64,000 nt of DNA from Candidatus Shapirobacteria bacterium (GCA_043817235.1 JBDRHA010000006.1:78401-142400); one strand, 5' to 3'; shown: positions 3,026-51,241, counted from the first letter of the stretch. The notes: generated from the sequence alone by a model not told the origin. A program made the numbers and translations.

Positions 3026-3029
3026 TTAG

Positions 3030-3641: not shown

Positions 3642-3664
3642 AATTGCTGTATTTTACCTAAGGG

Positions 3665-4765
3665 CTAGTTACTTTTTTGGAAATTTGGATTAGGCTTAAT
3701 TGAAGGAATAGCGCCGTCAACCGATTTCCATCCGGTCTGGCTAAGCTGGAGATTGTGCGCCTTATTTTTGATGTGATCCACGTATACCAAAATGGATAGG
3801 CGAGGAGTAAGAATGCCTTCTCTATCGCGGTCAAACTCTATCTCTTTAGAGACTAAGGCAGCAATATAATCATCAGCAATTTTTAAATCCTGGCTTAAAA
3901 TCCTTTTTAGGGATATATCTAGAGTCTCTCCGGGGCGAATTTTGTCCATAAATAAAAGAGCGCCACCTTCGCCTGTGTAGTTATAAAACTCACCTATTGC
4001 CGGCTTAAATTCAAAAATAAATGGCTTGAGAAAAACCTTTCTATTTTGATGATTGATGTCAAAAAAACTTTTATTGATTATTTTGACAGACTTGTTGTAA
4101 TACTCGTAAAAATCAGCCGGTATTAACTCTTTATCAGCCTTGGCTGAGAAAAGATTGATACTGTTCGCAACGGGGTAGCTTAATTCTGATAATTTAAGTT
4201 CGGGAATTTCTTTGTTATAGATATATTCCAAAAGATAGGGATTGATGATGTGAATCGTACCCTGAGGATCAGCGGCATAATAAACATTGTTTATTTGTAG
4301 GTAAAAAACAGGTAAAAGAGAATATTTTCTTAAAATTTCAAAGGTTTTTATATTGATTGAGCCGAATTCCAAGCTGACAAAGTTGTTGTCTCTGGGCAAG
4401 AAACTTTTAAGTTGTAGACTAAAGATGCGATAAAAGTCTTTTTGCTCGAATAAGTAAAAACGCAATCTGCTAAAAGTAGCATAATCTTCGCAGCCAATAG
4501 TCAACTTAAGACAGAACGAAAAATCTTTAAAATTGTCTGGAATATTATTAGCAGATAGATATTCAAGCTGAGATTGATAATTTGCATGGCCGGATAAGGT
4601 AACCTTAGTTGGCGAATCTTGGATTGTTTCTATGCCTGCAAAAGAGCCTTTAAGGTTATAAATAAAATCGGAAAAGTCTTTCGCCCCATCATCGCTTTTT
4701 TCCCTAATAATATAGAAGATTAATTCGTGATTATTATTCATTTGGGGAAATTGTATCATAAACAA
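3665..4765 (-). CDS. Hypothetical protein, very AT-rich and N/K/I/Y-rich
   Basis: 366-aa uninterrupted ORF. No recognisable motif. Confidence 0.45.
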   Translation of the reverse strand: MFMIQFPQMNNNHELIFYIIREKSDDGAKDFSDFIYNLKGSFAGIETIQDSPTKVTLSGHANYQSQLEYLSANNIPDNFKDFSFCLKLTIGCEDYATFSRLRFYLFEQKDFYRIFSLQLKSFLPRDNNFVSLEFGSINIKTFEILRKYSLLPVFYLQINNVYYAADPQGTIHIINPYLLEYIYNKEIPELKLSELSYPVANSINLFSAKADKELIPADFYEYYNKSVKIINKSFFDINHQNRKVFLKPFIFEFKPAIGEFYNYTGEGGALLFMDKIRPGETLDISLKRILSQDLKIADDYIAALVSKEIEFDRDREGILTPRLSILVYVDHIKNKAHNLQLSQTGWKSVDGAIPSIKPNPNFQKSN

Positions 4766-7971: not shown

Positions 7972-8709
7972 TTAAGCCTTATCGTTAAGATATTTTTTTG
8001 CTTTTTCGTAGCTGATACGCAAATATGAAGAAATGTTTTGCAAAAACTCCTGGCGGATTTTTTGGCGGTAGGCAGAACTTTTTAAGGAAACTGTCTTTTG
8101 AAAAACTTCCCAGACCTCTTTAAGATAATTTGCGGCCCAGTCTTCCTCTTTTTCGGTTTTAATAAAGTGAAATTTTTTGTTCAGTAACAGGGGAACAATA
8201 ATTATTCTTTTGTTTTTAAAGTGATCATTAAGAATGACCTCCAGGCCATAATTGGTGGCCTCTATTTTTTTTAAAGCAGGAATAACGCTTCTTTTTTTTA
8301 AGCACCGCTGGCCGGAAAACCGCCATAAAAAATAATTAGAAGCATTATACTGGCTGTTGATGCCAATAGTCATATCAGACAAGTTACTCACCACGGGATT
8401 GATTAAGGAAAATAAGTGATGTTTTTTCAGATTAATAAGGTCTGCATCTAAAAAAAGCAAATAAGGGTATTGGGCTGCTTTCACTCCCTGTGCCACTGCA
8501 TATCCTTTGCCCCGATTTTGCTTTAAATCAATTACTGTAATTTTGCTTTTTAACTTTTCCAGTTTTTTTAAAGTTTCGTCAGCTGATCCGTCGTTAACAA
8601 CGATTACTTCAGTAATTTCCGGGCAGCTCAAAGCTGACTTAACCACTCCAGCTACAGTTTTTTCTTCATCATAAGCGGGAATAATACAGCTGACTTTTGT
8701 CTTGTTCAT
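7972..8709 (-). CDS. Glycosyltransferase family 2
   Basis: 'CIIPAYDEE', 'VVNDGSADETL' and 'LDADL' (DxD) GT-A fold motifs. Confidence 0.8.
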   Translation of the reverse strand: MNKTKVSCIIPAYDEEKTVAGVVKSALSCPEITEVIVVNDGSADETLKKLEKLKSKITVIDLKQNRGKGYAVAQGVKAAQYPYLLFLDADLINLKKHHLFSLINPVVSNLSDMTIGINSQYNASNYFLWRFSGQRCLKKRSVIPALKKIEATNYGLEVILNDHFKNKRIIIVPLLLNKKFHFIKTEKEEDWAANYLKEVWEVFQKTVSLKSSAYRQKIRQEFLQNISSYLRISYEKAKKYLNDKA

Positions 8710-8757: not shown

Positions 8758-9783
8758 TTGTCAAGGGAAGTAAGTATAAAAAAGTGGATAAAAGTAACTA
8801 AATATGATATAAACAAGCTAATGTTAGAAAGATATGGTATTTTTCCGGCTGAAGTCAAGAGAGATTTTTCCCGAGAAGTAATTTTGGAGACTGGTCAGAC
8901 AGCCATGCTTCAAAGACTGGCCTTCGAAGATTTTGGGGGCCAAGTGCCGGTTTTAACGACTGGGAGGCTGGAAAACGCTTCTTCTATTGCCATGCTTTTG
9001 CCAGGATCAGTGCCGACAATGGAGCTGGAGCACAAAGCAGCCACTTATTATTCTCTTGTTGCAGAACAACTAGCCGATGCGGGAGTGACTAGTGTGCTTT
9101 TAGCTAACTGGTCTGGCTGGCCGCGCGACTATGGCCCATATATCAATTCCTTTTCTGCTTTTAGCTGTAAACCTCAGTCCGTAGGTGAGAAAATTGATTT
9201 AATTAGCTGTCTCCGGCAATGGATAAGAAAACAAACTGATCCAGACACGCCTCTTTTAATGGTTGGCCATTCCAGCGGCGGAGGTGCGCTTTTAAGAGTT
9301 TCCGATAAACTATTAAGAGGTGATTCTTGTTTGAAAATTATCGCTGATGCTCCAACAGCAATTGGAGCAGATTCCAGAATAACTAGAACTTTTGGCAAAT
9401 TAGCTAAAGCTGGGGGAGTGGGGGCGGCAATCCGCCTTACCCGGAATTTGCCTGAAAGCTGGCAGGAGAGGATGATGACTCAATACGGCTTAACTGTTTC
9501 TCAGGCTAGAGCCGATCAATGGATAGGGCTTAATGCCCAGTTTAGCCCGCACCAAGTGGCAAATAGAGAAGTGCAAGAAGAGCATGAGTATTTAAGAACA
9601 ATGGGCCCAGTTCGTTTTTTAAGCAGAGAGGTAAGAATTTTGATAGGAGAGAACGATCCCTTGGTTGCTAAAAGTAAACTTAAGGAGATAGCGGGCGTCG
9701 AACCAGAAGTTTTAAAGAATGGCAATCATTTTACGGCTCGCACTGATCCGGATCAGTATGCTCGAGTTTTATTAAGAAGCTGA
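8758..9783 (+). CDS. Alpha/beta-hydrolase-fold protein (putative esterase/lipase)
   Basis: Nucleophile elbow 'GHSSG' (GxSxG). Confidence 0.5.
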   Translation: MSREVSIKKWIKVTKYDINKLMLERYGIFPAEVKRDFSREVILETGQTAMLQRLAFEDFGGQVPVLTTGRLENASSIAMLLPGSVPTMELEHKAATYYSLVAEQLADAGVTSVLLANWSGWPRDYGPYINSFSAFSCKPQSVGEKIDLISCLRQWIRKQTDPDTPLLMVGHSSGGGALLRVSDKLLRGDSCLKIIADAPTAIGADSRITRTFGKLAKAGGVGAAIRLTRNLPESWQERMMTQYGLTVSQARADQWIGLNAQFSPHQVANREVQEEHEYLRTMGPVRFLSREVRILIGENDPLVAKSKLKEIAGVEPEVLKNGNHFTARTDPDQYARVLLRS

Positions 9784-9784
9784 T

Positions 9785-9842
9785 TTTCTCAAAACATCGG
9801 AATTATACAGGAAAACAGGGGAGATGTGTAGTTATGGGATTA
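9785..9842. repeat. Direct repeat copy 1 (about 55 bp, 'ttttc..aaa..acggaattatacaggaaaa.ag.g.agatgtgtagttat.ggatt')
   Basis: About 88% identical to 11376-11434. Each copy abuts the stop codon of a minus-strand gene. Confidence 0.7.
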
Positions 9843-10628
9843 AATAGTCTGATCAGGGAGCATAAATTCTTTTTCGTCTACCTTTATGTTTAATACGGTC
9901 GCTTTGTAGCTTAATTCAGTATTCATATTGCCATAATATGGCGTGTTTGCAGATAATATAATAGACATTTCCAGAGGGATAGCAGTTTGTTTGTCTAAAC
10001 AAAAAGTTATTTCTGCCTTATCCGGTTCTGTTTTGTAAACTTCCCTATAATATCTTAGGTTTTCCGAAAGACTACTTTCCACCATTATTACATCTGCTTC
10101 AAAAAGACGGCACTTTCTGTTAATAATTTCTTTTTCTCCCAGATATGAAAGATTTTCGTTGGTTAAATGGTTGAAGACCAGGCTTAATCTATCTTCAGGT
10201 ATTACATTTTCATTATTCGATAATGGATCTTTAGTTAGGGAATGTGGTTGACAAGTTAATGGGCCTATTGGATGGGCTCCGGTATTATCACTTATAAATA
10301 CTGGAGTAATACAGGAAAAGCTGCCTTCTGGTATTTCATAATATAGCTGAGTTGAGCCATCTTGAATAACATTGTCCTTCAGATGTTTCGTGATGGTTTT
10401 TGTTTTGCCATTTGAGCGAAAAACATCTAAAAGTTTAATTTCAGGGATTTCAGTGGGTTTGGAGCTATAAGCGACTTCATAATTTATTTCATATTCAACC
10501 GCTTGCTTATTAAGAGTACTTTGTAGAACGAATCGAGGCATTCGAACATAATTTATTATCCCAGCGACGGAAATTACAGCGAAAGAAAAAACAGCTATTT
10601 TAAGCATTAAGAAAAAATGTTTTCTCAT
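9840..10628 (-). CDS. Secreted/anchored hypothetical protein
   Basis: N-terminal signal-anchor 'MRKHFFLMLKIAVFSFAVISVAGII'. 262 aa. Confidence 0.5.
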   Translation of the reverse strand: MRKHFFLMLKIAVFSFAVISVAGIINYVRMPRFVLQSTLNKQAVEYEINYEVAYSSKPTEIPEIKLLDVFRSNGKTKTITKHLKDNVIQDGSTQLYYEIPEGSFSCITPVFISDNTGAHPIGPLTCQPHSLTKDPLSNNENVIPEDRLSLVFNHLTNENLSYLGEKEIINRKCRLFEADVIMVESSLSENLRYYREVYKTEPDKAEITFCLDKQTAIPLEMSIILSANTPYYGNMNTELSYKATVLNIKVDEKEFMLPDQTI

Positions 10629-29353: not shown

Positions 29354-30283
29354 ATGTCCAAAGACCTGCCTTATTATTTAGCTTTTAACTTTTTTGGCAA
29401 AATCGACCCATCGCGCTTTAAAGTTCTTCTTGACTATTTTGGCTCAGCAAAAAGGCTTTGGGAAGCGACCCGAGCGGAGCTAAAATCCACGGGATTATCT
29501 GGCCGCCTTATTAATGATTTTTTAGAATTCCAATCGATTTTTGACCCGCAAAAAGTTAATTTTACTAAAGAAAACTGGAATATCCCTTATGATAATTTCT
29601 CCTGGTATAAAGAAATTAAAGATTACCAAAAATGCTTAGCAGGCAAGATCACTATCCTAACCTGGCAAGACAAACATTACCCCAAAGTTTTAAAAAATAT
29701 TATTAATCCGCCGCCGGTTTTGTATGTTAAAGGCAAACTGCCTTCTTCAAAAAAGGCTTTGGCCGTTATTGGTAGCCGCAGTGCGAGCGTTTATGGCCGG
29801 CAAAATACCCAAAAGTTTGTTCAAGATTTAGTAAAAAATAAGATTACTATAATTTCTGGCTTGGCCCGGGGAATAGACGCGATTGCGCACCAAACGGCTC
29901 TTGATAATAACGGCCAAACTATTGCCGTTTTAGGATCAGGAATTAACGTTGCTTATCCCTATCAAAATAAAAATATTTACTTAAAAATTATTAACGGCGG
30001 GGGAGCGGTAATTTCTGAATTTCCTCCTTTTTATCCGCCGTACGCGCCAAACTTTATCCAAAGAAACCGGATTATTTCCGGTTTGTCAAAAGCAGTTTTA
30101 GTGGTGGAGGCCGGAAAAAGATCCGGCAGCTTGGTGACGGCTCGGTTGGCAGGGGAGCAGGGTAGAGAAGTAATGGCCATTCCCGGGCCGATCAATTCGC
30201 CGCTTTCCGCTGGAACTTCTTATCTTTTATCCCAAGGAGCAAAACTGGTGACAAAAGTGGAAGATATCTTAGAAGAGCTCTAG
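29354..30283 (+). CDS. dprA: DNA-processing protein A (DprA/Smf)
   Basis: Rossmann-like core 'AVIGSRSAS...ISGLARGIDAIAHQTALD...GQTIAVLGSGI'. Confidence 0.85.
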   Translation: MSKDLPYYLAFNFFGKIDPSRFKVLLDYFGSAKRLWEATRAELKSTGLSGRLINDFLEFQSIFDPQKVNFTKENWNIPYDNFSWYKEIKDYQKCLAGKITILTWQDKHYPKVLKNIINPPPVLYVKGKLPSSKKALAVIGSRSASVYGRQNTQKFVQDLVKNKITIISGLARGIDAIAHQTALDNNGQTIAVLGSGINVAYPYQNKNIYLKIINGGGAVISEFPPFYPPYAPNFIQRNRIISGLSKAVLVVEAGKRSGSLVTARLAGEQGREVMAIPGPINSPLSAGTSYLLSQGAKLVTKVEDILEEL

Positions 30284-34829: not shown

Positions 34830-36965
34830 ATGGAAGAAGAAACATTCCGCTTTTTGGAAATAAGGATTCCTAAAGACAATGAGTATACTGTTGAGCAGAC
34901 TCAGGCTTTGCTTAGCAACTTAAGTTTGTGGAAAAAAAGTTTTCTTTTTTTAAAAAAACCGCTTCCCGTTTCTTTGGAAATTGCTTGTATTGAGCAAAAG
35001 ATCTATTTTATTGTTGGTGTGCCCACGGCTCAAATTAATTTTTTCCAATCTCAAGTGCTTGCCCAATACAAAGACTGCTTGCTTACTCCGGCTAAAGACT
35101 ACTTGGCTAGCTTGAATAGAAATGAGTTTTCTGTTTTGCGTCTTTCTTTGGCTCGGCCCTGGTATTTACCCTTAAAAACTGCGGACCAGTTTGACCAAGT
35201 TGACCCCCTTTCTTCGGTTTTAGCGACTATGGCCAAAAACGCCAAAAGTGAAGACATTATTGTTTACCAGCTCCTCCTTTTGCCGGTATCCAAGGGCTGG
35301 CAGGCGAATTTAATTAATTTTGCCAACGCAGGCGGAGGAAAAGACGAGAATGGCCGCGCCTTAGCCCACCCTCAAAAAAGTGAAATAGAGCTTAAGGCTG
35401 CCCATGCTGGTTTTTGTGGTCACTTAAGAATCTTTTCTAATAATTCTGAGGCCTTGTCTGCTTTATCCGGAAGCTTTGGCGCTTTTGCCAGCTCTTCCGG
35501 AAACTATTTAACTACTGCCAAGCCTGGAAGTTTTTCCAAGAAAAAGTGGCAAAAGGCTTTTTTTGAACGAAAAGTAATTGGCAAAGGCCAAATCCTTAAT
35601 GATCTGGAGATTTCTTCTCTTTGGCATCTTCCAACGGCTTTAATTACTTTGCCTAATATTGCCTGGGGTAGAAAAATAGTTTCCGAGGCGCCGGAAAATC
35701 TACCCATTGCCGAAGGATTAGGAAAGGAAGAAAAACAACAAATTACCTTTATTGCTCAAACTGAGTATAAAAACCAACTGATGACCTTTGGAATCAAAAG
35801 GAAAGACCGCTCCCGCCATGTTTATACGATCGGTAAAAGCGGCACGGGTAAAACAACTTTAGTGGCTAACATGGCTATTGAAGATATTAGAAAAGGCGAG
35901 GGAGTGGGAGTAGTTGATCCGCATGGAGATTTAATGCAAATTCTGCTTCAATATATTCCTAAAAATAGGATCAATGATGTTTGCTATTTTAATCCGTCTG
36001 ACCCGGAATATACTTATCCGCTAAATCCTTTGGAGGTGAATAATCCCTCTCAAAGAGAATTAGTCGCTTCGGGAATTGTATCCATTTTTTACAAACTTTA
36101 TGGCGATTCCTGGGGGCCGAGACTAGAGCATATTTTGCGCAATTGTCTGCTTAGCTTAACGGCTGTGCCCGATACTACTTTGGGGGATGTTATTAGAATT
36201 TTAACGGACAGAGGCTACCGCCAAAAAATAGTGGAAAAACTGGACGACCGAACCTTAAAGGCCTTTTGGGAAAAGGAGTTTCAGGGGATGGGGGATCGGC
36301 TAAGAGCTGAAGCAATTTCCCCTATTTTAAACAAGGTTGGCCAGTTCGTTACCTCTCCTTTAATCCGCCAGGTTTTGGCTTATCCTAAAAGCCGGGTGAA
36401 AATTGAAGAAATTATGAATCAGGGGAAAATTTTACTGGTGGATCTTTCTTCCGGAAAAATAGGGGAGGACAACTCCGCTTTATTGGGAGCAATGATTATT
36501 ACTCAAATTCAATTAGCGGCGATGAACCGAGTTTATACTCCGGAGGAAAAAAGACGCGATTTTTACTTATATGTTGATGAGTTTCAGAATTTTGCTACCC
36601 GAGCTTTTATTAAAATTCTTTCCGAGGCCCGAAAGTTTAAACTTAATTTGACAGTGGCTAACCAGTATATGGCTCAGCTTGATGAAGAAGTGCAAAAAGC
36701 AATTTTGGGCAACGTGGGGAGCATTATTACCTTTTTGGTGGGCTCTAATGATGCTCAGGTTTTAGACAAAGAATTTGGCAAGGATTTTACTCCGGACGAT
36801 CTGGTTTCTTTAGGCCGCTTTCAAATACTGATGCGCTTGGCTATTGACTGGCAAACAAGCAATCCTTTTTACGCTGTCACCTTGCCGCTTCCGGATTGCG
36901 TTAATAAAAATCGAGAAAAAATTATTAAGATGTCCCAAATGCAGTTTGGGAGAAAGAAGAGCTAA
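34830..36965 (+). CDS. P-loop ATPase of the TraD/VirD4/HerA-FtsK (DUF87-type) superfamily with a 330-aa N-terminal domain of unknown function
   Basis: Walker A 'GKSGTGKTT', Walker B 'YLYVDEFQNF', 'ILLVDLSSGKIG'. The architecture resembles type IV secretion coupling / conjugative-transfer ATPases. Confidence 0.55.
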   Translation: MEEETFRFLEIRIPKDNEYTVEQTQALLSNLSLWKKSFLFLKKPLPVSLEIACIEQKIYFIVGVPTAQINFFQSQVLAQYKDCLLTPAKDYLASLNRNEFSVLRLSLARPWYLPLKTADQFDQVDPLSSVLATMAKNAKSEDIIVYQLLLLPVSKGWQANLINFANAGGGKDENGRALAHPQKSEIELKAAHAGFCGHLRIFSNNSEALSALSGSFGAFASSSGNYLTTAKPGSFSKKKWQKAFFERKVIGKGQILNDLEISSLWHLPTALITLPNIAWGRKIVSEAPENLPIAEGLGKEEKQQITFIAQTEYKNQLMTFGIKRKDRSRHVYTIGKSGTGKTTLVANMAIEDIRKGEGVGVVDPHGDLMQILLQYIPKNRINDVCYFNPSDPEYTYPLNPLEVNNPSQRELVASGIVSIFYKLYGDSWGPRLEHILRNCLLSLTAVPDTTLGDVIRILTDRGYRQKIVEKLDDRTLKAFWEKEFQGMGDRLRAEAISPILNKVGQFVTSPLIRQVLAYPKSRVKIEEIMNQGKILLVDLSSGKIGEDNSALLGAMIITQIQLAAMNRVYTPEEKRRDFYLYVDEFQNFATRAFIKILSEARKFKLNLTVANQYMAQLDEEVQKAILGNVGSIITFLVGSNDAQVLDKEFGKDFTPDDLVSLGRFQILMRLAIDWQTSNPFYAVTLPLPDCVNKNREKIIKMSQMQFGRKKS

Positions 36966-37855
36966 AAACCAACTAGCTCGATTTCTAATTCTAAATCAAT
37001 TTCAAATTTATTTTTAACCTCTTTTTGGATAAGTTCGATTAATTTAAAAACATCACTGGCGGTGGCGTTTTGGTCGTTAATAATATAATTCGCATGCAAA
37101 TCAGAAACCATTGCCCCGCCAATTCTTTTTCCTTTAAGATTAGCCTTGTCAATAAGCATGCCGGCGTAGTTATCTTTCGGATTTTTAAAAATACAGCCAG
37201 CGCCAAATCCTTTAGGCTCAGCAGCTGATCTTTTTTTAAGTTTAATTTCTATTACTTTTTTAATATCTGCGGGGTCGCTTTCTTGAAGCTGAAAAATGCT
37301 TTTAAGAATAATCGGCCTTTTCTCTAAAGAGGTTTTTTTAATCTTGCTGGTGCGATATTCAAAGCTTAGGAAACTTCTATTAACTGTTGTAATTTTACCT
37401 TGGGCAGTAAGCAAACTGGCCTTTTTAAAAACATCAGCTATGCATCCGCCATAAAAAGGTTCTTGGGGGGTGCCCGCATTATTGCAAATTGCACCTCCGA
37501 TAGTTCCCGGAATACCAGTCAAAAATTCCAAACCGGAGAGGCCGTTTTCTTGGCAAAAGTTCAAAGCTTCGGCGGTTAAGATGCCGGAAGAAACTTTAAG
37601 ACAGTTGTTTTTTAATTTTTTTATCTCTCGGTAAGAGTTTTTTACGACCAAGCCCCTAAAACCCCGATCACTAATAAGCAGATTTGATCCAACGCCGAGC
37701 AAAAATAGAGGAATTTTAAGTCGGCAGGCTAGTTTTTGGGCTTGGATTAGCTCTTCAGCACCGAGCGCTTCATAAAAATAATCCGCCGGGCCGCCGATTC
37801 TAAAGCTCGTGCATTCTTTTAAGCTAATATTTTTTTCGAGCTGACCCTTATTCAT
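36962..37855 (-). CDS. murB: UDP-N-acetylenolpyruvoylglucosamine reductase
   Basis: FAD-binding 'FRIGGPADYF', C-terminal MurB domain. The start is taken at the internal Met (MNKGQLEK), not the longer ORF that reaches 37912. Confidence 0.8.
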   Translation of the reverse strand: MNKGQLEKNISLKECTSFRIGGPADYFYEALGAEELIQAQKLACRLKIPLFLLGVGSNLLISDRGFRGLVVKNSYREIKKLKNNCLKVSSGILTAEALNFCQENGLSGLEFLTGIPGTIGGAICNNAGTPQEPFYGGCIADVFKKASLLTAQGKITTVNRSFLSFEYRTSKIKKTSLEKRPIILKSIFQLQESDPADIKKVIEIKLKKRSAAEPKGFGAGCIFKNPKDNYAGMLIDKANLKGKRIGGAMVSDLHANYIINDQNATASDVFKLIELIQKEVKNKFEIDLELEIELVGF

Positions 37856-37871
37856 ATTAGTTCCTATTATA

Positions 37872-38672
37872 TTATATAGATTCCCACAGGAAATGATCGT
37901 GCGGAGGATCAAGGTCCTGGTTGAAATGTATCATGTGCTGGAATTCATGAACCAGAACAGATTTGAAGTCTTCGGACGCTAGGCCTATCCCATCAACCTG
38001 AGAAAGATTGATGTAGAACATCTCTCTTTCATTGGACCTAAGCTCTCCCCACCGCCCTGCGTCGACTGGATCGGGATATTCGTCTACCATGAAAAACACA
38101 CCAAGCCAATTGGGGTTGGTCACATCGTGGTTCTGTTGCAATAGAATTGTGAGCCTCTCGTCACCATCTCTTCCGGGTTTCCATTCGCCCCCGAACGTTG
38201 CCACAACCTTCTCATAGTCCTTGTCGAAGGCGCTAGCGAGGGCATCGAGAGCCTCTTCTGACACAGCCTGACCGTTTTCCACATACAGGTAAGCATGCGT
38301 ACCCGTAACCTGCAGAGTAGCAGTGATTTGCATCTGCGTGTATGTGCCATTGCTGCTCGTCAGGACCCAAAACGGCCTCTGCTCACCTACCTGTTCGGTT
38401 ATCACTCGTCCGGCCGCGTCTACTTTCCCCGCCGCCGAGAGTTCTGCAAGTGTTGGATCTGGACAGGGCACATTCCTGCTAACCCAATCAGCCAGCTCAT
38501 GCAACCTGGCCGTCCCACAAAACGCCCCCGCATTAAGTCCAGAGGCAGCAGGCAAGGAGCTAGGCTCTTGAGCCCAAACTGGCCAGTCAATCGATAGGAG
38601 AATGAATGAGACCATAACCAACGCAAACACAGAACCAACGGAGCCGAACCACTTTCTTCTTGACTGGATCAT
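37872..38672 (-). CDS. Secreted zinc metalloprotease-like protein (HExxH), probably C-terminally truncated at the island junction
   Basis: N-terminal TM/signal 'VFALVMVSFILLSIDWPVWA'. 'HEFQHMIH' motif only about 17 aa from the stop. The GC-rich coding sequence ends within two codons of the AT-rich flank. Confidence 0.45.
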   Translation of the reverse strand: MIQSRRKWFGSVGSVFALVMVSFILLSIDWPVWAQEPSSLPAASGLNAGAFCGTARLHELADWVSRNVPCPDPTLAELSAAGKVDAAGRVITEQVGEQRPFWVLTSSNGTYTQMQITATLQVTGTHAYLYVENGQAVSEEALDALASAFDKDYEKVVATFGGEWKPGRDGDERLTILLQQNHDVTNPNWLGVFFMVDEYPDPVDAGRWGELRSNEREMFYINLSQVDGIGLASEDFKSVLVHEFQHMIHFNQDLDPPHDHFLWESI

Positions 38673-38851
38673 TGCGATGCCTCCTGTGTGCTAATGGAAG
38701 CTAGAGAAGTACGGCAATAACGACCAAACAAGGAATGCAAGCGGCATGCATAGCCCATCGGCCGCCATCGAACCCACCGAGCTCTACACGGTTACTGTGG
38801 CGAGGTCGCAGCCTTGACCTTTCCTCAGCAAATTATCTCACGTGCTAGCAG

Positions 38852-39343
38852 CTAAGGGCTTGTCCCTGGCGAACCCAGGATCTCGTAACTCTGCACTTCG
38901 ATCAAACTTTCCTCGATGTAGCCTCTTGCTTGAATGTTCACGCTGCCCTCGCTAGCTAGCTCCCGCAACTCCTTTGCGTACTCACCAACAATCCCGTAAT
39001 TTCTTCCCTCGGGAGTCTCCAAGGCTAGCACAGCAAAAGGCTCATTTCCCGCTAATCGAATGCGGCCAACTACTGCCACTAGCTCCCTGTCTTCATCGGT
39101 AACAGGTGAAGGGCTCGAAGCCGGGGATGGGAGTGATTCTCGGATAGGCATCACGATGGTGCAACACACTAGGATCAAAGCCGATAACAATGCCACTAGC
39201 AAGACAAGTGCTGCCGCGACACGAAATCTCACGAGGCTCCGCATGGCTCTTTCGAATCCCCTGTTGTCCACAGGAATGATATTACCAATCTGGAGGTCAA
39301 GAATCAACGCGAGCGCCCACCACTCAGCAATCGCGTTGCGCAA
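38852..39343 (-). CDS. Hypothetical membrane-anchored protein (GC-rich island)
   Basis: TM 'AALVLLVALLSALILVCCTIVM'. The strand assignment is uncertain because high GC yields long ORFs on both strands. Confidence 0.3.
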   Translation of the reverse strand: MRNAIAEWWALALILDLQIGNIIPVDNRGFERAMRSLVRFRVAAALVLLVALLSALILVCCTIVMPIRESLPSPASSPSPVTDEDRELVAVVGRIRLAGNEPFAVLALETPEGRNYGIVGEYAKELRELASEGSVNIQARGYIEESLIEVQSYEILGSPGTSP

Positions 39344-39783
39344 GGCTTGTTACTTGTTAGAGGAACGACGTTTACCCAAGCAGGGATTGTCGACCGTGAT
39401 GGCAAGGAAGGAAGGGACGTTCCGCAGTCGACTAAGGTGAAGAAGAGCAAGATGTACGATAGGTTCTGCTCTTCAAAAAACCGCGCCTCATCGAGGCACC
39501 TACCAATCATTGAAAGACTACCACAGAACCTGATTCCTGTCAAATTTGCCATGGAGAGTGCGGGAAAGCCAGAACAACCTTCTGCACCCGGCCACAGAGC
39601 CAAAAGTACCACCCGTTCCCGAAAAGCCGGCTACTCCTATGGCCTGCTCGCGGTCACTTGTGTAGCATACACTCATAGAAGTACGCTCGCCCGCCGTTTT
39701 CCAGCACTCTCCCACGGTGGGATCTCACACCCACCCTCACACCGCATCTTCAAACTGATCCGTAGCCACCCACCGAGACCCAA

Positions 39784-40419
39784 TCAGTCACTGATCATCC
39801 CCATCCGCTCCAAATCCTTCAAAGCGGACCTATACGACAACCCCTTCACTTCGGCATACAGGGAGACGGCATTGCCAACCCTGAAATCGTGAAAGCAGAC
39901 CCACCTTCCCACTCCCCCTGGATTTGGATAGACAGCAAAGGAGTGGTGAGATTCCTCATGAAGCGGGCACAGGCCCGTGTAATAGGCTCCCCTATCCTCG
40001 AGTTGAGTGAAGAGGCGGGCCACCGCCACCACGTCCGCCTCGGGCACATCAATCGCTTCTCTCCTTCTCCGCCCGGGCCTGCGCTCCGAGACCTCGGCAA
40101 CAGCCTTCCCCACAGCATCCCTATCGACCCTTACCACCTTGTCCAAGTAGTCGAGCTGCTCGCTTAGATTCCTTCCCACCCGCTCCAACGACTCTGGATC
40201 CAGGAAACCATAGCGCTCTCCGGTCACCCGATGTACGCCCAGAGGACCTCGCACCAGGGACCCGTAGCCTCTCGCCGAGATCCTGTCTTGCTTGGGGCTA
40301 CAACTTTTTGGGTGATTGAAAATAAAGAGATTGTAAAAATGTATTGGAGCTGGGAAACAATGGCTAAATATCCAAGGGAAATGTTTTCCTCGCCCCGCCT
40401 TCTTTATTGGGCGGTGCAT
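39784..40419 (-). CDS. CHC2-type (DNA-primase-like) zinc-finger protein; probably a primase N-terminal remnant. The real start is likely well inside this ORF.
   Basis: 'CPLHEESHHSFAVYP...WVCFHDFRVGNAVSLYAEVKGLSYRSAL' matches the zf-CHC2 signature (CPFHxExxPSFxV...CFGCG...). The motif sits at the C-terminal end of the ORF and no primase catalytic domain follows. Confidence 0.4.
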   Translation of the reverse strand: MHRPIKKAGRGKHFPWIFSHCFPAPIHFYNLFIFNHPKSCSPKQDRISARGYGSLVRGPLGVHRVTGERYGFLDPESLERVGRNLSEQLDYLDKVVRVDRDAVGKAVAEVSERRPGRRRREAIDVPEADVVAVARLFTQLEDRGAYYTGLCPLHEESHHSFAVYPNPGGVGRWVCFHDFRVGNAVSLYAEVKGLSYRSALKDLERMGMISD

Positions 40420-40587
40420 TCAGTTGTCCCGGTCATTTTTCTTGCTGTTGTGCCGACCCAGGTTATTATGAACTATTTGGAGTGGCCGCTGATTATAAGT
40501 GCTTTTTTTGTAACGCTAACTCTGGCTGTTTTGAGCAAAAAAGCTTGGCAAGCGGGGGTAAAAAGATACAGCGGCGTTTCGACTTAA
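40339..40587 (+). CDS. Small membrane protein (2 TM)
   Basis: Start is taken at the internal Met 'MYWSWETMAKYP'. The 5' part of the longer ORF lies in the GC-rich island and is probably not coding. Confidence 0.35.
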   Translation: MYWSWETMAKYPREMFSSPRLLYWAVHSVVPVIFLAVVPTQVIMNYLEWPLIISAFFVTLTLAVLSKKAWQAGVKRYSGVST

Positions 40588-40626
40588 ATACTTGACAGCG
40601 TATAAAGAAAGCTTTATAATTTCATA

Positions 40627-40929
40627 ATGAATACTTTAGGTTTCTCTTTTGTTGGGAGCTATGAACTAAGAAAAGATTTGCCCCTTTTAATAAAAAGTTT
40701 AAATAAAAAAAGAGGAGAAGTAGTGGTTACACAAAAAGGCAAGCCGGCGGCGGTTCTATTGTCTTTGAAGAGATATTCAGAGTTGAACTTGTTGACTGAG
40801 GAGTTAGAGGAGGCAATTAGAGAGATGGCTGATAAGCGAGAACTCCAAGAGCTCTTGCGGGAAAGAGAAGAGATTAAAAAAGGAAAAGGAAAAGAGGCTG
40901 AGGATTTATTTAAAGAACTGGGAATCTGA
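40627..40929 (+). CDS. Type II antitoxin, Phd/YefM family
   Basis: 'VVVTQKGKPAAVLLSLKRYSEL' Phd/YefM fold signature. Directly precedes the toxin gene. Confidence 0.7.
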   Translation: MNTLGFSFVGSYELRKDLPLLIKSLNKKRGEVVVTQKGKPAAVLLSLKRYSELNLLTEELEEAIREMADKRELQELLREREEIKKGKGKEAEDLFKELGI

Positions 40930-41187
40930 ATGTATAGAGCATTGTTCGGCCGGAAAGCGCAAAAATCCTTAAGAAAAATTCCCAAAAGATATCAAATTAA
41001 AGTTAAAGAAGCTGTACTCAAACTAAAAGACAACCCCTTTTGTTATGGCACAATTAAGCTTTCGGGTTATTCTGTAGCTGAGTATCGTCATCGAGTAGGA
41101 GATTATCGAATTCTTTTTGATATTTGGGAAGAAAAAGAGAGAATTTTAATTTTAGATATCAAAAGAAGGACCTCTACTACTTATTAA
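40930..41187 (+). CDS. Type II toxin, RelE/ParE (YoeB-like) family
   Basis: 'YRHRVGDYRILFDIWEEKERILILDIKRR' RelE/ParE signature. 85 aa. Start abuts the antitoxin stop. Confidence 0.7.
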   Translation: MYRALFGRKAQKSLRKIPKRYQIKVKEAVLKLKDNPFCYGTIKLSGYSVAEYRHRVGDYRILFDIWEEKERILILDIKRRTSTTY

Positions 41188-42247
41188 TTAACTCTTCCAA
41201 AATCCGCCACCTTCGTTTTTTTTCCGGTGGAGAAACATCGTCTTTAAGCTTGGTCGCTATTGTTCCTGGGCGAGGGGAGTATTTGGCTAAATATGCTTTT
41301 TGGAAGCCGATTTTTTTAGCTAGCTTAACCGTATTTTGAAATTGTTTTTTTGTTTCTGTGGGAAAGCCGACAATAACATCTGTGGTAAATAATACTTCGG
41401 GAATTGCCCTTTTAATTTTATTAACTAAATTTAGATATTCTTTAGCCATATAGGGCCGGTTCATTTTTTTTAAAATAGCATCATCTCCGGACTGCAAGGG
41501 CAAGTGAATCTCTCGGCTGATATTTTTATTTTCGGCAATCACCTTAATCAGCTCATCAGAAAAATCCCAAGGGTTGGCCGAAAGAAAACTAATTTTTTTA
41601 ACGTTCTTAATTTTAGCTATTTTTTCTAAAAGCTCGGGAAAAGAAGTATTTTTTAAATCTTTTCCGTAAGAATTAATATTTTGGCCGAGCAATAATATTT
41701 CAGAAAATCCATCTTTAAGAGCTTTTTTTACTTCAGCAAATATTACTTTTTCCGGCCGGGAAATTTCTTTTCCCCGGCCAAAAGGAACAATGCAATAAGA
41801 ACAAAAGTGATTACAGCCGTTGGAAATGGGAATTAAAGCTAAATTATTTTTAGCTCTTTTTGGTTTTACTAAAAAACCAGCCAAGTCTTCGATTAAAACC
41901 ATTTTAATTTTTAGGCCAATTCTTTTTTGGAGCACTTTAAGATTTTTATGTGTTTTGTCTAAAAGCGCCCAGCCGGCCAAGCAGCCGGTTAAAATAATTT
42001 GGCCCTGATAATTTTTCTTTTTTAAGTTATTAATTAGGCCATATGCCCGATTTTCGGCTGACTTGCGGACAATACAGCTATTTATAATAATTACTTTTGC
42101 TTTCGCAATATTTTTTGTTTCTCGATGGCCTCGAGAGTTAAAAATGCTTTTTATTCTTTCCGAATCCGCCTCATTCATGGCGCAGCCAAAAGTTTTTAAG
42201 TAATAAGTTCTTATTTTATTTGCCATTAATGAGCGATAATAACACAT
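41177..42247 (-). CDS. MiaB/RimO-family radical-SAM methylthiotransferase (no TRAM domain)
   Basis: MTTase N-terminal 'YLKTFGCAMNEADSE', radical SAM 'CNHFCSYC'. 356 aa, ends before a TRAM domain. Confidence 0.75.
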   Translation of the reverse strand: MCYYRSLMANKIRTYYLKTFGCAMNEADSERIKSIFNSRGHRETKNIAKAKVIIINSCIVRKSAENRAYGLINNLKKKNYQGQIILTGCLAGWALLDKTHKNLKVLQKRIGLKIKMVLIEDLAGFLVKPKRAKNNLALIPISNGCNHFCSYCIVPFGRGKEISRPEKVIFAEVKKALKDGFSEILLLGQNINSYGKDLKNTSFPELLEKIAKIKNVKKISFLSANPWDFSDELIKVIAENKNISREIHLPLQSGDDAILKKMNRPYMAKEYLNLVNKIKRAIPEVLFTTDVIVGFPTETKKQFQNTVKLAKKIGFQKAYLAKYSPRPGTIATKLKDDVSPPEKKRRWRILEELINK

Positions 42248-47475: not shown

Positions 47476-49581
47476 GTGTTTAAAAAAGAAAAAATAATTC
47501 TGAAATCTTCTCAAAATTTTCAAAAGGGAGTAATTCAGCTTCCGATTATTTTGGGCTTGGTTGTTTTGGCTGTTACTTTGCCCGCCGCGGTGCTTCTCAC
47601 CAGCCAGGTTCAAGAAACGAGACGGGGAGCTGCTGAGGGTACAATATTAGCAACCTGCCATGACCCTTGGGTTAGCGCATCGGAGGCAGTATCAGGCGGA
47701 GAAGTTATTTATAGGCCGAGCTATGATGGCTGGACTTCTAATTTAAGACTTTATTATGGAAATACGATGAATCGGGCAGAAATGACTAATAATCCCAATA
47801 ATTTACGCTGTGATGATCCGGCCAGTGGATGTAAAGTTAACGATGGTCGGTGTATTTGTACTGTAAATGGACAAAAAGGCAATACTTTATGGTTTTTTAA
47901 TAATATTAGCAAGGAAATTAATGGCACTCAGTATCTTTGCACCTGGGATGATCGCTGGATGAAATATGATCCCGAGCAGGGCTGGTTAATGGATATTGGC
48001 CCTGGGCCAAGCTATAGTTGTATTAATAACTGTGAAGTTTCCGTTCGGGTTACATCTTCAGACCAGGATGGGAGTACTTGTCTTGCTCATGGGGGAGCTT
48101 GTTCAGCCGCTAATTGTTCTGGAGGCATGACCGATATTGGCTCTCTAGATTGTCCAGCCGATGCTCCTTATCCAGTGCCTTATACGCCACATTGCTGTGT
48201 ACCCAAAGTACAACCAGATGGGAGTGAGTGTGCAGCCCAGGGAGGTTCTTGTTCGGCTACGGCTTGTCCTGCTGGCTTGGCTGATCTTGGCTCCTTGGAT
48301 TGTTCAGCCGATAACTATCCAGTTCCTGTTGATCCTCATTGCTGTTTGGCTAGTGTTGCCAATACTCCTGTTCCCATAGAGCCTACCCCTACTTCTAGCA
48401 TCGGTGCTTGTACCCAGCCTTCGGCGATCGGGACGAGCGGGCCGAGGGGCTGTGTTGGTCCGACTAATACTTTTACAATAACCGACACGGGCATTGACTG
48501 CTATCCTCACGGTGCCCAGATTTTAATTTACGAGCAAGAAGATGTGGGCAGTGATGGCGAAGTAATTGCTGGCGCCCAAAACTATGGTAATGATATTTTT
48601 GCCTGGGGTGCTTTTCAAAAAGCAGGGGATAAGTATTCCGTCGAAAAAACTTTAGCAGAAGACTTGTATTATTGGCGCGGCTGGTCACGGCTTTCTCCTG
48701 ATCTTTATCCGGATTCCGGCGGAATACGCAGTGTAAAGCTTAATTGGCGTCCTTTTGAAGTTGATGCTGCTGGCCCCGAAGCGCCGGTAATTGAATCAAT
48801 CACTTGCAGCCCGGATTCCATTCGTTTGCAATGGGAATCCCGGGAAGTTGATCAGGGCTGCGCCGGAATTCCCGAAGGACTTAACTATGGAGCTTACGAT
48901 TATCAGTTTAGCCGGACTCCGAATTTTACGCTTCAAGATCGGCTGGAAAGCGGTAGCCATTGGACTGACAATAATTCCGGCCAAATAACAGGCGCTTTTA
49001 GCGGTACAGTTTATGCTCGGGTGAAAGTTCGGGATAAGGTGTGGAATACTTCTTCCTGGAGCCGAACTTCTTGCGAGATTGCTCCGCCCGAGGCGCAAGA
49101 ATGTCTTGTTAGCGGGTTAACTATTAATAATAGCTTCCCAAATCAGTTAGTTTTGTCTTGGAGCACTGTTAATCCCGAAGAAGCCGATCAAATTAGCATT
49201 GAGCGGGGAGAGCAGCTTGTTGCTTCTCTTGAAACCGCAGAAACATCTTGGCATGATACCGGGGTAATTTGCGGAAACACTTATGAATACCGAGTTTCGT
49301 GCTTAAAGACTCAAGCCGGAGGAGAAAATTTATTTTACAATTCCTCAAATATTGTTTCTGCTCAAGTTCAGCCTTGCGCGCCCGAATGCCCGATTGGGGA
49401 TTTAGATGATGATTGCGATGTAGATTTAGCGGATATTGGAAAGTTAGTTTTGCAGTGGTCGGGCGGAAGCGATTCCTCCGGCCCTGTTTCGGGTAAGTGG
49501 GCGGATCTAAGTGGCGATTCTAAAGTTAATGAAATTGATCTGGCGATTTTGCTAAGATCTTGGACAGGTTCGCGAAACTAG
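47476..49581 (+). CDS. Anchored/secreted multi-domain protein: N-terminal signal-anchor, 'QETRRGAA' motif, two Cys-rich about 45-aa modules, two FN3-like domains, C-terminal dockerin-like Ca-binding repeats
   Basis: Cys module 'DGSTCLAHGGACSAANCSGGMTDIGSLDCPADAPYPVPYTPHCCV' repeated twice. Dockerin-like 'DLSGDSKVNEIDLAILLRSW' and 'DLDDDCDVDLADIGKLV'. Confidence 0.6.
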   Translation: MFKKEKIILKSSQNFQKGVIQLPIILGLVVLAVTLPAAVLLTSQVQETRRGAAEGTILATCHDPWVSASEAVSGGEVIYRPSYDGWTSNLRLYYGNTMNRAEMTNNPNNLRCDDPASGCKVNDGRCICTVNGQKGNTLWFFNNISKEINGTQYLCTWDDRWMKYDPEQGWLMDIGPGPSYSCINNCEVSVRVTSSDQDGSTCLAHGGACSAANCSGGMTDIGSLDCPADAPYPVPYTPHCCVPKVQPDGSECAAQGGSCSATACPAGLADLGSLDCSADNYPVPVDPHCCLASVANTPVPIEPTPTSSIGACTQPSAIGTSGPRGCVGPTNTFTITDTGIDCYPHGAQILIYEQEDVGSDGEVIAGAQNYGNDIFAWGAFQKAGDKYSVEKTLAEDLYYWRGWSRLSPDLYPDSGGIRSVKLNWRPFEVDAAGPEAPVIESITCSPDSIRLQWESREVDQGCAGIPEGLNYGAYDYQFSRTPNFTLQDRLESGSHWTDNNSGQITGAFSGTVYARVKVRDKVWNTSSWSRTSCEIAPPEAQECLVSGLTINNSFPNQLVLSWSTVNPEEADQISIERGEQLVASLETAETSWHDTGVICGNTYEYRVSCLKTQAGGENLFYNSSNIVSAQVQPCAPECPIGDLDDDCDVDLADIGKLVLQWSGGSDSSGPVSGKWADLSGDSKVNEIDLAILLRSWTGSRN

Positions 49582-49588
49582 CATTAAG

Positions 49589-51241
49589 ATGAAAAAGGAA
49601 AACAAAAACATTCTGATTCTTTTAGGATTGCTTATTGCTCTGCCAGTAGTGGTTTGGGTGATTAATCAAGCGACAAATCTTCGCCAAAGAGCCACCGGAA
49701 CAAGAAAGTTAGCCGAAGTATATCTTCGGGATACCTCTTCAAATCCCAGCGCTTTGCGCGAGTCAGGAGACGTGGTTCCTTTTGAGATAAGGATAAAGCC
49801 AGATTCTTCTTTTAGCTTGATTACGGCCGGGGTGGAAATTGATTATCCGGAAAACATTATAGAGGTGTCTGGTCTTGGCTGTGCCGAAACTTTAAGCAGG
49901 GAAGTTGTTAATGAAATAGATGATGGCCTCTTAAAAATTTCTTGCTATTATCAGAATAGCAATCAAAGTATTCCTTTTAGCGGAGGTGAAGATTTTGTTT
50001 TGGCTCGCTTTAATGCTACGGTTAAAGAGGCTGCTGAAGTAAGCCAGCTGGCTTCGGTAACCTTTAACGTCAGCCGAACCAATATTCCGGACATTTCCCA
50101 AGAGGTTATTGATGATGTAGCCAGTGATGGCATACCTTATGATCTTCCCTTGGCTTATGCCCCAACCCCGCAAGAATTAGTTTGCGACTTGCGCTGTGAG
50201 GATGGGACTCAAGCTTGTCCCTCTAGAGTTCAAGAGGGCAGAATATTAAGTTTTTATGCAAATATCTCGGGAGCCGGAAGTGAGATAGACCCCTACAGGT
50301 GGATGTCACAGTATGAGGAAAATGATCCGGTCTTGTTAGCCGATGAGGGCGCGACCACTGATTGTGCGAATGACGGTCTTTGCCAGGTTACTCAAGATTG
50401 GCCAGCTCCTCAAGGAGCAGCCGGCTCTTATTTGATTAGCTTTAGTTTTCAAATTGGCAGTGAACAGTCTGGCTGCCAGCACATTGTTGAGGTAGAAGAT
50501 CAAGACGGCAGTGAATGCCAAAGCAGAGATGGAACATGCTCAGCCGCTAGTTGTTCCGAAGGTACGACAAATATTGGTTCTTTAGACTGTCCAACAGATG
50601 CTCCTTATCCTGTTCCTTATACGCCTCATTGCTGTGTTGAAGATGAAGATCCAAATATTCCAGATCAAGACGGTAGCCTTTGTTTAGAAAGCGGCGGCAC
50701 TTGTTCGGCTACTTCTTGCGATTCTGGATTCATCAATGCAGGAGCGATGGATTGTCCGGAAAGCGAAAACGATACCCCTGAAGGACCTTACTGCTGTGTG
50801 CCGCAAGGACAACCAACGCCCACGCCTACCCCCGGAGAATGCTTAGCTGTATGCGAAGCTCGGGGTTGTGTTGGTCGGACTTGCCGGGAGGAGGGTTGCT
50901 TCCCCTTAGAGGTTGATGCTGACAATGGAGTCTGTAGTCTAGATCGGAGCTGTTGCTGTTTTAATTGTCCGCCGGAAGCACCCACTGCTACCCCCACCCC
51001 GGATGATAATTTGCCCACTGTTCCGGTTTCTGAGTGCGTCTGCACCAACGACGAAGCCGGGTTACTGCGGGCTCAAGGGGACGCCAATTGTAATGGCCAG
51101 ACGGATCTAATTGACTACAGCATTTGGTTTGATATATTTATTAGAGGAGGAGCTGCTTACGGAGAAAAAGGAGACTTAAATTGCCAAAACGGGGTGACTA
51201 TAGATGATTATGAAATTTGGCGGTCCCATTTTGATTTTTAA
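49589..51241 (+). CDS. Cohesin-like domain protein with the same Cys-rich modules and C-terminal dockerin-like repeats
   Basis: Cohesin-like beta domain 'GDVVPFEIRIKP...VEIDYPENIIEV...FNATVKEAAEV'. Two Cys modules about 80% identical to those of the upstream gene. 'GDANCNGQTDLIDYSIW...GDLNCQNGVTIDDYEIW'. Confidence 0.6.
   Translation: MKKENKNILILLGLLIALPVVVWVINQATNLRQRATGTRKLAEVYLRDTSSNPSALRESGDVVPFEIRIKPDSSFSLITAGVEIDYPENIIEVSGLGCAETLSREVVNEIDDGLLKISCYYQNSNQSIPFSGGEDFVLARFNATVKEAAEVSQLASVTFNVSRTNIPDISQEVIDDVASDGIPYDLPLAYAPTPQELVCDLRCEDGTQACPSRVQEGRILSFYANISGAGSEIDPYRWMSQYEENDPVLLADEGATTDCANDGLCQVTQDWPAPQGAAGSYLISFSFQIGSEQSGCQHIVEVEDQDGSECQSRDGTCSAASCSEGTTNIGSLDCPTDAPYPVPYTPHCCVEDEDPNIPDQDGSLCLESGGTCSATSCDSGFINAGAMDCPESENDTPEGPYCCVPQGQPTPTPTPGECLAVCEARGCVGRTCREEGCFPLEVDADNGVCSLDRSCCCFNCPPEAPTATPTPDDNLPTVPVSECVCTNDEAGLLRAQGDANCNGQTDLIDYSIWFDIFIRGGAAYGEKGDLNCQNGVTIDDYEIWRSHFDF

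Follow-up and report, generated by a model that had tools for sequence, protein, structure and literature searches.

Within a 64,000-nucleotide stretch of the genome of a Candidatus Shapirobacteria bacterium (GCA_043817235.1 JBDRHA010000006.1:78401-142400; the window), we identified a block at positions 37885-40305 that is compositionally foreign, a single contiguous donor segment of ~2.41 kb whose recognisable genes all lie on the minus strand. Judged by its composition and by its absence from two syntenic relatives (L027 and L028), the block is horizontally acquired foreign DNA. It is a known kind of horizontally acquired islet in an unusually clear form: cross-phylum, unameliorated, made up of gene fragments and devoid of mobility genes. 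The account we favour, and consider moderately probable, is a recent cross-phylum acquisition in which a random donor fragment was inserted illegitimately into the variable gap between a miaB-like gene and murB, with the genes at both of its ends dead.

Composition and gene content of the block

As the reference for the composition tests we used all other 2,420-bp windows within the 64,000-nt window. The guanine-plus-cytosine (GC) content of the block is 0.543, about 6 standard deviations (sd) away from the remaining windows (mean 0.409, sd 0.021, maximum 0.472). In 300-bp windows the GC content is 0.49-0.63 over 37900-40299 and 0.31-0.44 in the flanks (3-4 kb on each side), and the two 1-kb bins that lie within the block, with 0.532 and 0.538, are the top of the 64 bins. 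An earlier reading of the DNA made from the sequence alone (the sequence-only reading) had placed the GC jump at about 37885 and 40310, and this was borne out by 30-nt windows, which switch at 37880-37885 and 40297-40305. Moreover, the tetranucleotide correlation between the block and the rest of the window is −0.11, compared with a mean of 0.93 and a minimum of 0.655 for host windows. The three minus-strand open reading frames (ORFs) described in that reading, namely a signal-anchored HExxH protease, a transmembrane (TM) protein and a CHC2 zinc-finger ORF, are present as claimed, and their GC content by codon position (0.60/0.41/0.56 for the protease fragment, 0.59/0.45/0.57 for the small TM ORF and 0.64/0.45/0.68 for the primase/zinc-ribbon ORF) is that of real genes from a GC-richer genome. 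At the third codon position (GC3) the block ORFs reach 0.56-0.68, as against 0.24-0.42 in host genes, so the proposed comparison of tetranucleotides and codon usage sets the block strongly apart from its host. The possibility that a structured RNA, an rRNA or an intron raises the GC content was also considered and rejected: no rRNA, tRNA, intron or other Rfam family was found in the block, either with Rfam at gathering thresholds or in a sensitive scan (E<3), and the spacer folds like shuffled sequence.

The left end of the block is occupied by a 5′ fragment, 263 codons long, of a gene for a secreted lugdulysin-like HExxH metalloprotease (37884-38672, minus strand), which we recognised using HMMER, an alignment of its homologs (A2) and the PDB entry 7bb8. 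As read, the ORF covers 37872-38672, and its final three codons and TAA stop come from host-side DNA. The N-terminus has a Sec-type signal (RRK, a hydrophobic core, then VWA/Q) followed by an N-terminal domain, and the HEFQH sequence at residues 242-246 is invariant in A2. The ORF ends with HEFQHMIHFNQDLDPPHDHFLW up to the junction and ESI plus the stop beyond it, and so stops at the W of a W-x-N-E motif; its homologs continue EETWVNEG after the HExxH region (A2). Both in the homologs and in lugdulysin, W-x-N-E lies ~15-25 residues past HExxH, with more than 150 catalytic-domain residues beyond. An exhaustive HMMER search returned 1,516 hits at E<=1e-3 and 377 at E<=1e-10; the homologs are 470-1400 amino acids (aa) long and the match is confined to their N-terminal ~250 residues. 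The family profile matched lugdulysin (7bb8) with an E-value of 8e-40, and W-L-N-E follows HExxH in that structure. We take lugdulysin/hyicolysin-type neutral metalloproteases to be MEROPS M30, and the Glu of W-x-N-E is presumably the third zinc ligand, by analogy with gluzincins. Judging from these alignments the protease is C-terminally truncated, as the sequence-only reading had suspected, and lacks the presumed third zinc ligand and all that follows the W. The window copy thus shares with lugdulysin-type enzymes the signal peptide, the N-terminal domain and the HEFQHM zinc-binding helix, but it ends 18 residues past HExxH, and the rest of the catalytic domain and the C-terminal domains are missing. 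The lost region includes the Tyr mutated by the depositors in the inactive lugdulysin variant 7bb9 (E242Q Y315F). A k-mer-indexed homolog search with the protease gave only the self match, its nearest relative (50% identical) comes from a contig with 38% GC, and its NCBI entry has the locus tag ABIB61_01315. The protease ORF and MurB each match a Candidatus Shapirobacteria MAG protein at NCBI with 100% identity, in both cases on a 146,739-bp contig. No Pfam protease family, the Peptidase_M30 model included, matched the window ORF or eight homologs, and P0031 gave only a sub-threshold match to the NCBIfam model MXAN_6640_HExxH; the lugdulysin-like family found here lies outside the Pfam and NCBIfam models at their cut-offs.

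At the opposite end, positions 39784-40296 (minus strand) hold the 3′ fragment, codons ~130-301, of a gene that combines a primase-polymerase (AEP) domain with a CHC2/CHCH zinc ribbon, as determined with Pfam and an alignment of homologs (A1). The mechanical ORF (39784-40419) continues past the junction into AT-rich host-type DNA. Zn_ribbon_DnaG (PF01807) matched ORF residues 127-206 (E 1.9e-10, 40.9 bits against a cut-off of 24.9), and of AEP-TOTE (PF22548) only the tail was matched (profile positions 171-227 of 230; 22.5 bits, below the cut-off of 27). We obtained 28 homologs, and the full-length ones have 296-303 aa, are 59-70% identical and carry the AEP domain N-terminally and the zinc ribbon C-terminally. 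The C-terminal 172 residues of the window ORF align without gaps with these ~301-aa two-domain proteins. In A1 the homology begins at window residue P42 (PKQDRIS); the 41 residues before it are the AT-rich antisense of the permease fragment described below and are unrelated to the homologs, and columns 1-129 contain no homologous window residues. Similarity at the DNA level (~70%) to three contigs that carry homologs (L005, L004 and L031) likewise starts at 40296, which corresponds to codon ~130 of 301. Since the homology starts only there, the AEP catalytic core is missing and only the 3′ 57% of the gene is kept. The zinc ligands C151, H154, C175 and H177 are conserved, being invariant in A1, and the NCBI annotation at this place is a 147-aa CHC2 protein. 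The sequence-only reading was right in taking the zinc-finger ORF for a gene fragment, but it looked for the missing primase domain on the following side, whereas in this family the AEP domain is N-terminal, that is, upstream. AEP + CHC2 proteins are similar to the CRISPR-associated PrimPol NF040561; the window copy has their CHC2 zinc ribbon but not the N-terminal ~129 residues with the AEP core. The alignment had no match in IMG/VR, and among GenBank phages it matched only primases that are 25-29% identical. Relaxed selection in the fragment was considered and rejected, because its private substitutions are not in excess: there are 5 private changes among 77 sites that are invariant otherwise, the same as in functional long-branch homologs (5-7). 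In L005 (1212-3249) and L031 (8772-10906) the AEP + CHC2 gene is divergently paired with a radical-SAM gene similar to that of the pyruvate formate-lyase (PFL) activase, and in a third contig (L001, 6055-20476) it lies in the early region of a prophage, after genes for a 503-aa protein and a 275-aa protein; the latter is weakly similar to nicking replication initiators.

Between the two fragments we found one complete gene, which encodes a small membrane-anchored protein (38852-39244, minus strand; 130 aa from an ATG at 39244). Counted from a TTG at 39343, where the mechanical ORF begins, the product would have 163 aa. The protein has a single strong TM helix, LVLLVALLSALILVCCTIV (Kyte-Doolittle 3.13), and it had no match in Pfam, PHROG, NCBIfam or PADLOC; a metagenome scan found nothing. 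It is, however, 33% identical (E 1e-9) to a 120-aa TM protein of contig L033, whose gene (397-759) directly precedes that of the closest, lugdulysin-like protease homolog (774-3818). Because of this homology we regard the donor piece as contiguous. The two genes are thus paired in two unrelated genomes, but not universally, as no small TM gene precedes the protease gene in another context (L035). To judge from their sequences, the protease and small TM genes look like a cellular gene pair, and the small anchored protein may be a dedicated partner of lugdulysin-like proteases, for example, an inhibitor, a chaperone or an anchor. The rest of the block is a non-coding spacer of ~440 bp with donor composition (39344-39783, minus strand), in which there is no supported ORF and no Rfam match. 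It contains a terminator-like hairpin with a T-run at 39499-39483, and its fold z-score (0.06) is the same as that of shuffled sequence. A plus-strand ORF at 39347-39892 (181 aa) was treated as spurious because it has no family match and a flat codon-position GC profile (0.50/0.52/0.58).

Both boundaries of the block cut through genes, as the sequence-only reading had claimed, since the homologs of both end genes are much longer. The left junction falls within a 4-nt zone of uncertainty (37880-37883): donor homology reaches 37884, where the protease homology extends to W263 (codon 37884-37886), and on the other side a host-type motif, CTATATAAT, at 37871-37879 lies upstream of murB and recurs in a similar form upstream of murB in both relatives. 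The right junction falls within a 9-nt zone (40297-40305), with AEP homology up to 40296 and permease-coding DNA from 40306, and the GC content drops from 0.57 to 0.27 across 40290-40320 (30-nt windows). Donor and host sequence therefore switch within at most 4 nt on the left and at most 9 nt on the right, which would be shorter than the k-1 overlap needed for a misjoin in a de Bruijn graph. Direct or inverted repeats pairing the two junctions, a target duplication at the flanks and terminal inverted repeats at the block ends were all searched for and none was found, and this includes the att-like direct repeats that had been proposed for the junctions. A 19-nt, 74% match from junction to junction, offset from the junctions themselves, was judged to be chance. 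There are neither Ns nor repeats at the junctions. A TATAAT-like motif, (C/G)(T)ATATAAT, occurs 8-18 nt upstream of the murB start in the window (37856-37879), in L027 (~9975-10000) and in L028 (~8216-8229), and it may be a conserved −10 element with a very short leader or merely AT-rich intergenic sequence.

The host locus and the DNA between the block and the miaB-like gene

The block lies among core genes. To its left are proS, dprA, topA, the gene of a VirD4-like ATPase and murB, which is intact (36962-37855, minus strand; Pfam FAD_binding_4 and MurB_C); to its right are an intact gene for a miaB-like radical-SAM methylthiotransferase (41177-42247, minus strand; Pfam UPF0004 and Radical_SAM), dcd, thyX and rpsB. 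MurB is 60-61% identical to its counterparts in L027 and L028 and aligns with them from the start codon, and the miaB-like protein is ~70% identical to theirs and aligns to the end. The order topA, VirD4-like gene, murB / miaB-like, dcd, thyX, rpsB is conserved in both relatives. L028 has 15 bp between the stop codon of the miaB-like gene and the murB ATG (gap 8216-8229), and in L027 the two genes are separated by one 186-aa orphan ORF of host-like GC content (9366-9926). In the window the same gap measures 3.3 kb (37856-41176) and contains the GC-rich block, a fragment of an ABC-2 family permease gene and a Phd/ParE toxin-antitoxin (TA) pair. As the miaB-like gene and murB are adjacent in two syntenic relatives, the gene order identifies the flanks of the block as one host locus, which excludes a simple end-to-end chimera of contigs as the form of the chimeric join that the sequence-only reading had offered as an explanation. 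The content of the gap differs in all three genomes compared, and it looks like a local hot spot for insertions. A scan of GTDB genomes with MurB revealed no close relative (best match 42% identical), and no relative closer than 61% MurB identity was present in any collection searched. The miaB-like protein is short (331-356 aa) in the window, L027 (8349-9344) and L028 (7157-8215), and in all three it consists of UPF0004 and Radical_SAM only, with no TRAM domain.

Immediately to the right of the block lies the 3′ fragment of the ABC-2 family permease gene, a pseudogene (40306-40587, plus strand; ABC2_membrane_6, PF06182, E 8.7e-13). It covers only positions 133-227 of the 229 of the profile, that is, the C-terminal ~95 residues, and the Pfam alignment nominally begins at 40288. 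Its GC content (0.426) is host-like, and the permease gene and the foreign primase gene are truncated at one and the same right junction. L027 and L028 do not have the fragment at this locus, and a metagenome scan found no close relative. Directly after its stop codon there is a consensus sigma-70 promoter (TTGACA-17-TATAAT, 12 of 12 matches; 40592-40620, plus strand), 7 nt upstream of the TA pair. The pair consists of a Phd/YefM antitoxin gene (40627-40929, plus strand; PhdYeFM_antitox, PF02604, E 1.2e-8, 35.0 bits, cut-off 29.8) and a ParE/RelE toxin gene (40930-41187, plus strand; ParE_toxin, PF05016, E 1.3e-8, 35.8 bits, cut-off 23), which abut at 40929/40930. With two small adjacent genes, the expected Pfam domains and a strong promoter, it resembles type II Phd/YefM-ParE/RelE modules. 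The sequence-only reading had placed such a pair immediately beyond the boundary and had viewed it as an addiction module retained from mobile DNA. The pair is indeed nearby, but the 280-bp permease fragment intervenes, and the second claim did not hold: unlike an addiction module of the foreign block, the pair has a host-like GC content (0.357) and a promoter of its own, and the pseudogene separates it from the block, of which it is not part. Nor do L027 and L028 have the pair at this locus. The 3′ end of the miaB-like gene overlaps that of parE by 11 bp, the two genes being convergent.

Origin of the block

The family scans of the block ORFs were run against Pfam, PHROGs, NCBIfam and PADLOC, and 10 neighbouring genes were also examined. 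No integrase, recombinase or transposase domain was found among any of these genes, there is no tRNA target (the nearest tRNA is >24 kb from the block), and the block DNA had no match in phage and plasmid collections. The only element-type gene in the block is the primase fragment, and both border genes are truncated. Because the features that define integrated elements, insertion sequences and transposons were tested for and not found, the block is not a member of these classes. Nothing marks the block as the integrated mobile element that had been read into this DNA: it has no integrase or transposase, no att or inverted repeats, no target duplication and no tRNA.

Regarding the donor, the AEP homologs point to the Anaerolineae. 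That of L001, an Anaerolineae genome, is in a prophage with repressor, exonuclease, HNH, RusA and terminase genes, and L004 is an Anaerolineaceae contig. The homologs of L005 and L031, 69-70% identical, lie beside a radical-SAM gene, whose product in L005 clusters with an Anaerolineales protein. In L004, L005 and L031 the AEP gene is located among ordinary chromosomal genes. One short member of the closest AEP cluster is labelled Armatimonadota. The contigs carrying AEP homologs have 54-64% GC, and the composition-normalised tetranucleotide correlation of the block is 0.51-0.61 with these contigs, 0.20 with its own host and 0.25-0.27 with relatives in the candidate phyla radiation (CPR; Patescibacteria). 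Our best guess is that the donor was a bacterium of ~55% GC, for which Anaerolineae-type Chloroflexota are the best candidate, though not an established one, and the donor fragment possibly includes the border of a prophage or mobile element. The search for a donor lineage that had been recommended found AEP homologs in Anaerolineae and Anaerolineales contexts and a nearest protease relative from a low-GC contig.

The acquisition that we favour would have proceeded as follows. Free DNA would have been taken up through the competence machinery typical of CPR bacteria (dprA is at 29354-30283, 8 kb from the block), and joined to the Candidatus Shapirobacteria chromosome by illegitimate, non-site-specific recombination. 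The site would have been the normally tiny gap between the co-oriented miaB-like gene and murB. The fragment would have been cut at random and for that reason would carry mostly gene parts: the 3′ part of the primase gene, the spacer, the small membrane-protein gene in full and the first 263 codons of the protease gene. Both end genes would have been dead on arrival. CPR Saccharibacteria have been shown to be naturally competent (PMC10633639). Horizontal gene transfer (HGT) islands and transferred genes are common in Patescibacteria, most of them intra-phylum, and recent cross-phylum transfers are rare (PMC12455944). Like those islands, the block is compositionally deviant, lies beside core genes in a streamlined CPR genome and is detected by GC and tetranucleotide content, but it is very small (2.4 kb), cross-phylum and unameliorated, and it holds mostly gene fragments and not complete adaptive genes. 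The joining of foreign DNA without site-specific machinery also has a parallel in the homology-facilitated and short-patch double illegitimate recombination (HFIR/SPDIR) of Acinetobacter (bioRxiv 10.1101/2023.11.22.568220). As in illegitimate recombination, the end-points of the block are arbitrary and fall within genes, a target duplication is missing, and the event may have deleted host DNA as well. SPDIR patches, however, measure tens of bases and not 2.4 kb, and in our case the mechanism is deduced and not observed. The donor frames are all open and align without frameshifts, and there is neither internal decay nor amelioration at GC3. The block either arrived very recently or does not truly belong to this genome.

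Several observations weigh against a recent illegitimate insertion. Both junctions are known from the assembled sequence alone; the same junctions were not found in a second assembly or strain in the collections searched, and exact look-ups of the window proteins yielded no independent contig on record. The complete lack of decay and amelioration is equally expected of an artefact. The donor lineage is based on ~70% identical homologs of one gene and on a k-mer signature that is noisy at 2.4 kb, and the nearest protease relative, as mentioned above, is just 50% identical and on a low-GC contig. Neither microhomology nor a homologous anchor was demonstrated at the junctions. Finally, the host-type ABC-2 pseudogene is truncated at the same right junction as the primase gene, which a later deletion trimming a larger insert would explain equally well.

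This last point leads to the possibility, which we regard as clearly less probable, that the block is what remains of a decayed integrated element, a larger segment derived from a prophage, an integrative and conjugative element or a plasmid, from which deletions removed both ends together with neighbouring host DNA while the addiction module was retained. A single deletion spanning the ABC-2 and AEP genes would give the shared truncation point, a relative of the AEP and zinc-ribbon gene does lie in an Anaerolineae prophage, and the TA pair and the pseudogene mark a variable spot that gains and loses DNA. Nevertheless, neither an integrase, att repeats and a tRNA target nor any other mobile-element gene accompanies the block, and its protease and small TM genes are cellular-type genes of secreted proteins and not phage genes. 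The AEP gene of L004, L005 and L031 has chromosomal neighbours, as noted above. A Chloroflexota-type element with 55% GC would not be expected to integrate site-specifically into a CPR genome with 41% GC, and the TA pair is host-like in GC content (0.357) and has its own promoter. Point-mutational decay, moreover, is not seen within the block.

An artefact of assembly or binning, in which the assembler, a scaffolder or gap-closer, or chimeric reads introduced DNA of a co-occurring GC-rich organism, appears quite unlikely to us. The source is a metagenome-assembled genome (MAG), the junctions are without an independent confirming assembly, the block is unameliorated with genes that look freshly functional apart from the cuts, and both cuts lie inside genes, as random misjoins would give. 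Such an origin would, however, require two independent misjoins 2.4 kb apart within one 146,739-bp contig and one syntenic host locus. The overlap of donor and host (at most 4 and at most 9 nt) is too short for a shared k-mer path, and the junctions are free of Ns and repeats. Furthermore, taking out the block yields no intact host gene but leaves the ABC-2 fragment truncated, which implies that the host locus had already been rearranged there. We see even less reason to think of domesticated cargo, which strikes us as very improbable: the truncated genes would be expressed or useful, as a secreted N-terminal protease domain, a membrane protein or a stand-alone zinc-ribbon DNA-binding protein, or the block would feed murB transcription. 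The three ORFs are open and co-oriented with the miaB-like gene and murB, the small TM gene is complete, and the 147-aa CHC2 protein was called by the NCBI annotators. But the protease has lost everything from W-x-N-E onward, and with it the Tyr that is mutated in 7bb9, the primase is without its catalytic AEP core, the spacer has a terminator-like hairpin, and there are no orthologs in other CPR genomes; a recent event would by itself leave the frames open.

Provided that the junctions are real, the block is a clean case in which a CPR bacterium has very recently captured DNA from another phylum without mobile-element machinery, and it illustrates raw, pre-selection HGT in a streamlined genome, with genes that are mostly broken. 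It would also mark the gap between the miaB-like gene and murB as a variable spot and possibly indicate the organism that hosts the epibiont. The event is an ordinary one unless the donor was the host of the CPR cell. In that regard we put forward, as an unlikely scenario, that the fragment is DNA of an Anaerolineae-like host of the Shapirobacteria cell, or of a prophage of that host, taken up by the competence/pilus machinery while the cell fed on host nucleic acids and then ligated by accident. If this were true, unameliorated islets of gene fragments could offer a systematic means of host assignment for uncultured CPR lineages. Should the junctions prove false, the block serves as a warning about a contaminated MAG contig. 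Annotations of this locus should flag both the protease and the 'CHC2 zinc finger protein' as pseudogene fragments.

Other genes of the window

The VirD4/TrwB-like gene next to murB (711 aa; 34830-36965, plus strand) is a homolog of the type IV coupling protein (T4CP), and it is convergent with murB, with a 4-bp overlap. Its relatives in L027 and L028 carry DUF8128, and its position beside murB is conserved. In Patescibacteria such T4CP homologs are widespread and are encoded on the chromosome (PMC12102498). We considered the gene as a marker of a mobile element and rejected it as such, because it is kept in both relatives and its class is chromosomal and widespread in the phylum; it appears to be a core chromosomal T4CP-like gene and not part of a conjugative element.

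After the block itself, the window is most atypical at 47476-51241 (plus strand), with a GC content of 0.45-0.49 and tetranucleotide correlations of 0.52-0.70. This stretch holds two large ORFs, one of 701 aa with a weak dockerin-like C-terminus and one of 550 aa that belongs to no family. A similar pair (632 aa, dockerin-like, and 415 aa) is found in L027 beside an M50 peptidase gene, and the two ORFs of the window are probably lineage-typical surface proteins and not foreign DNA.

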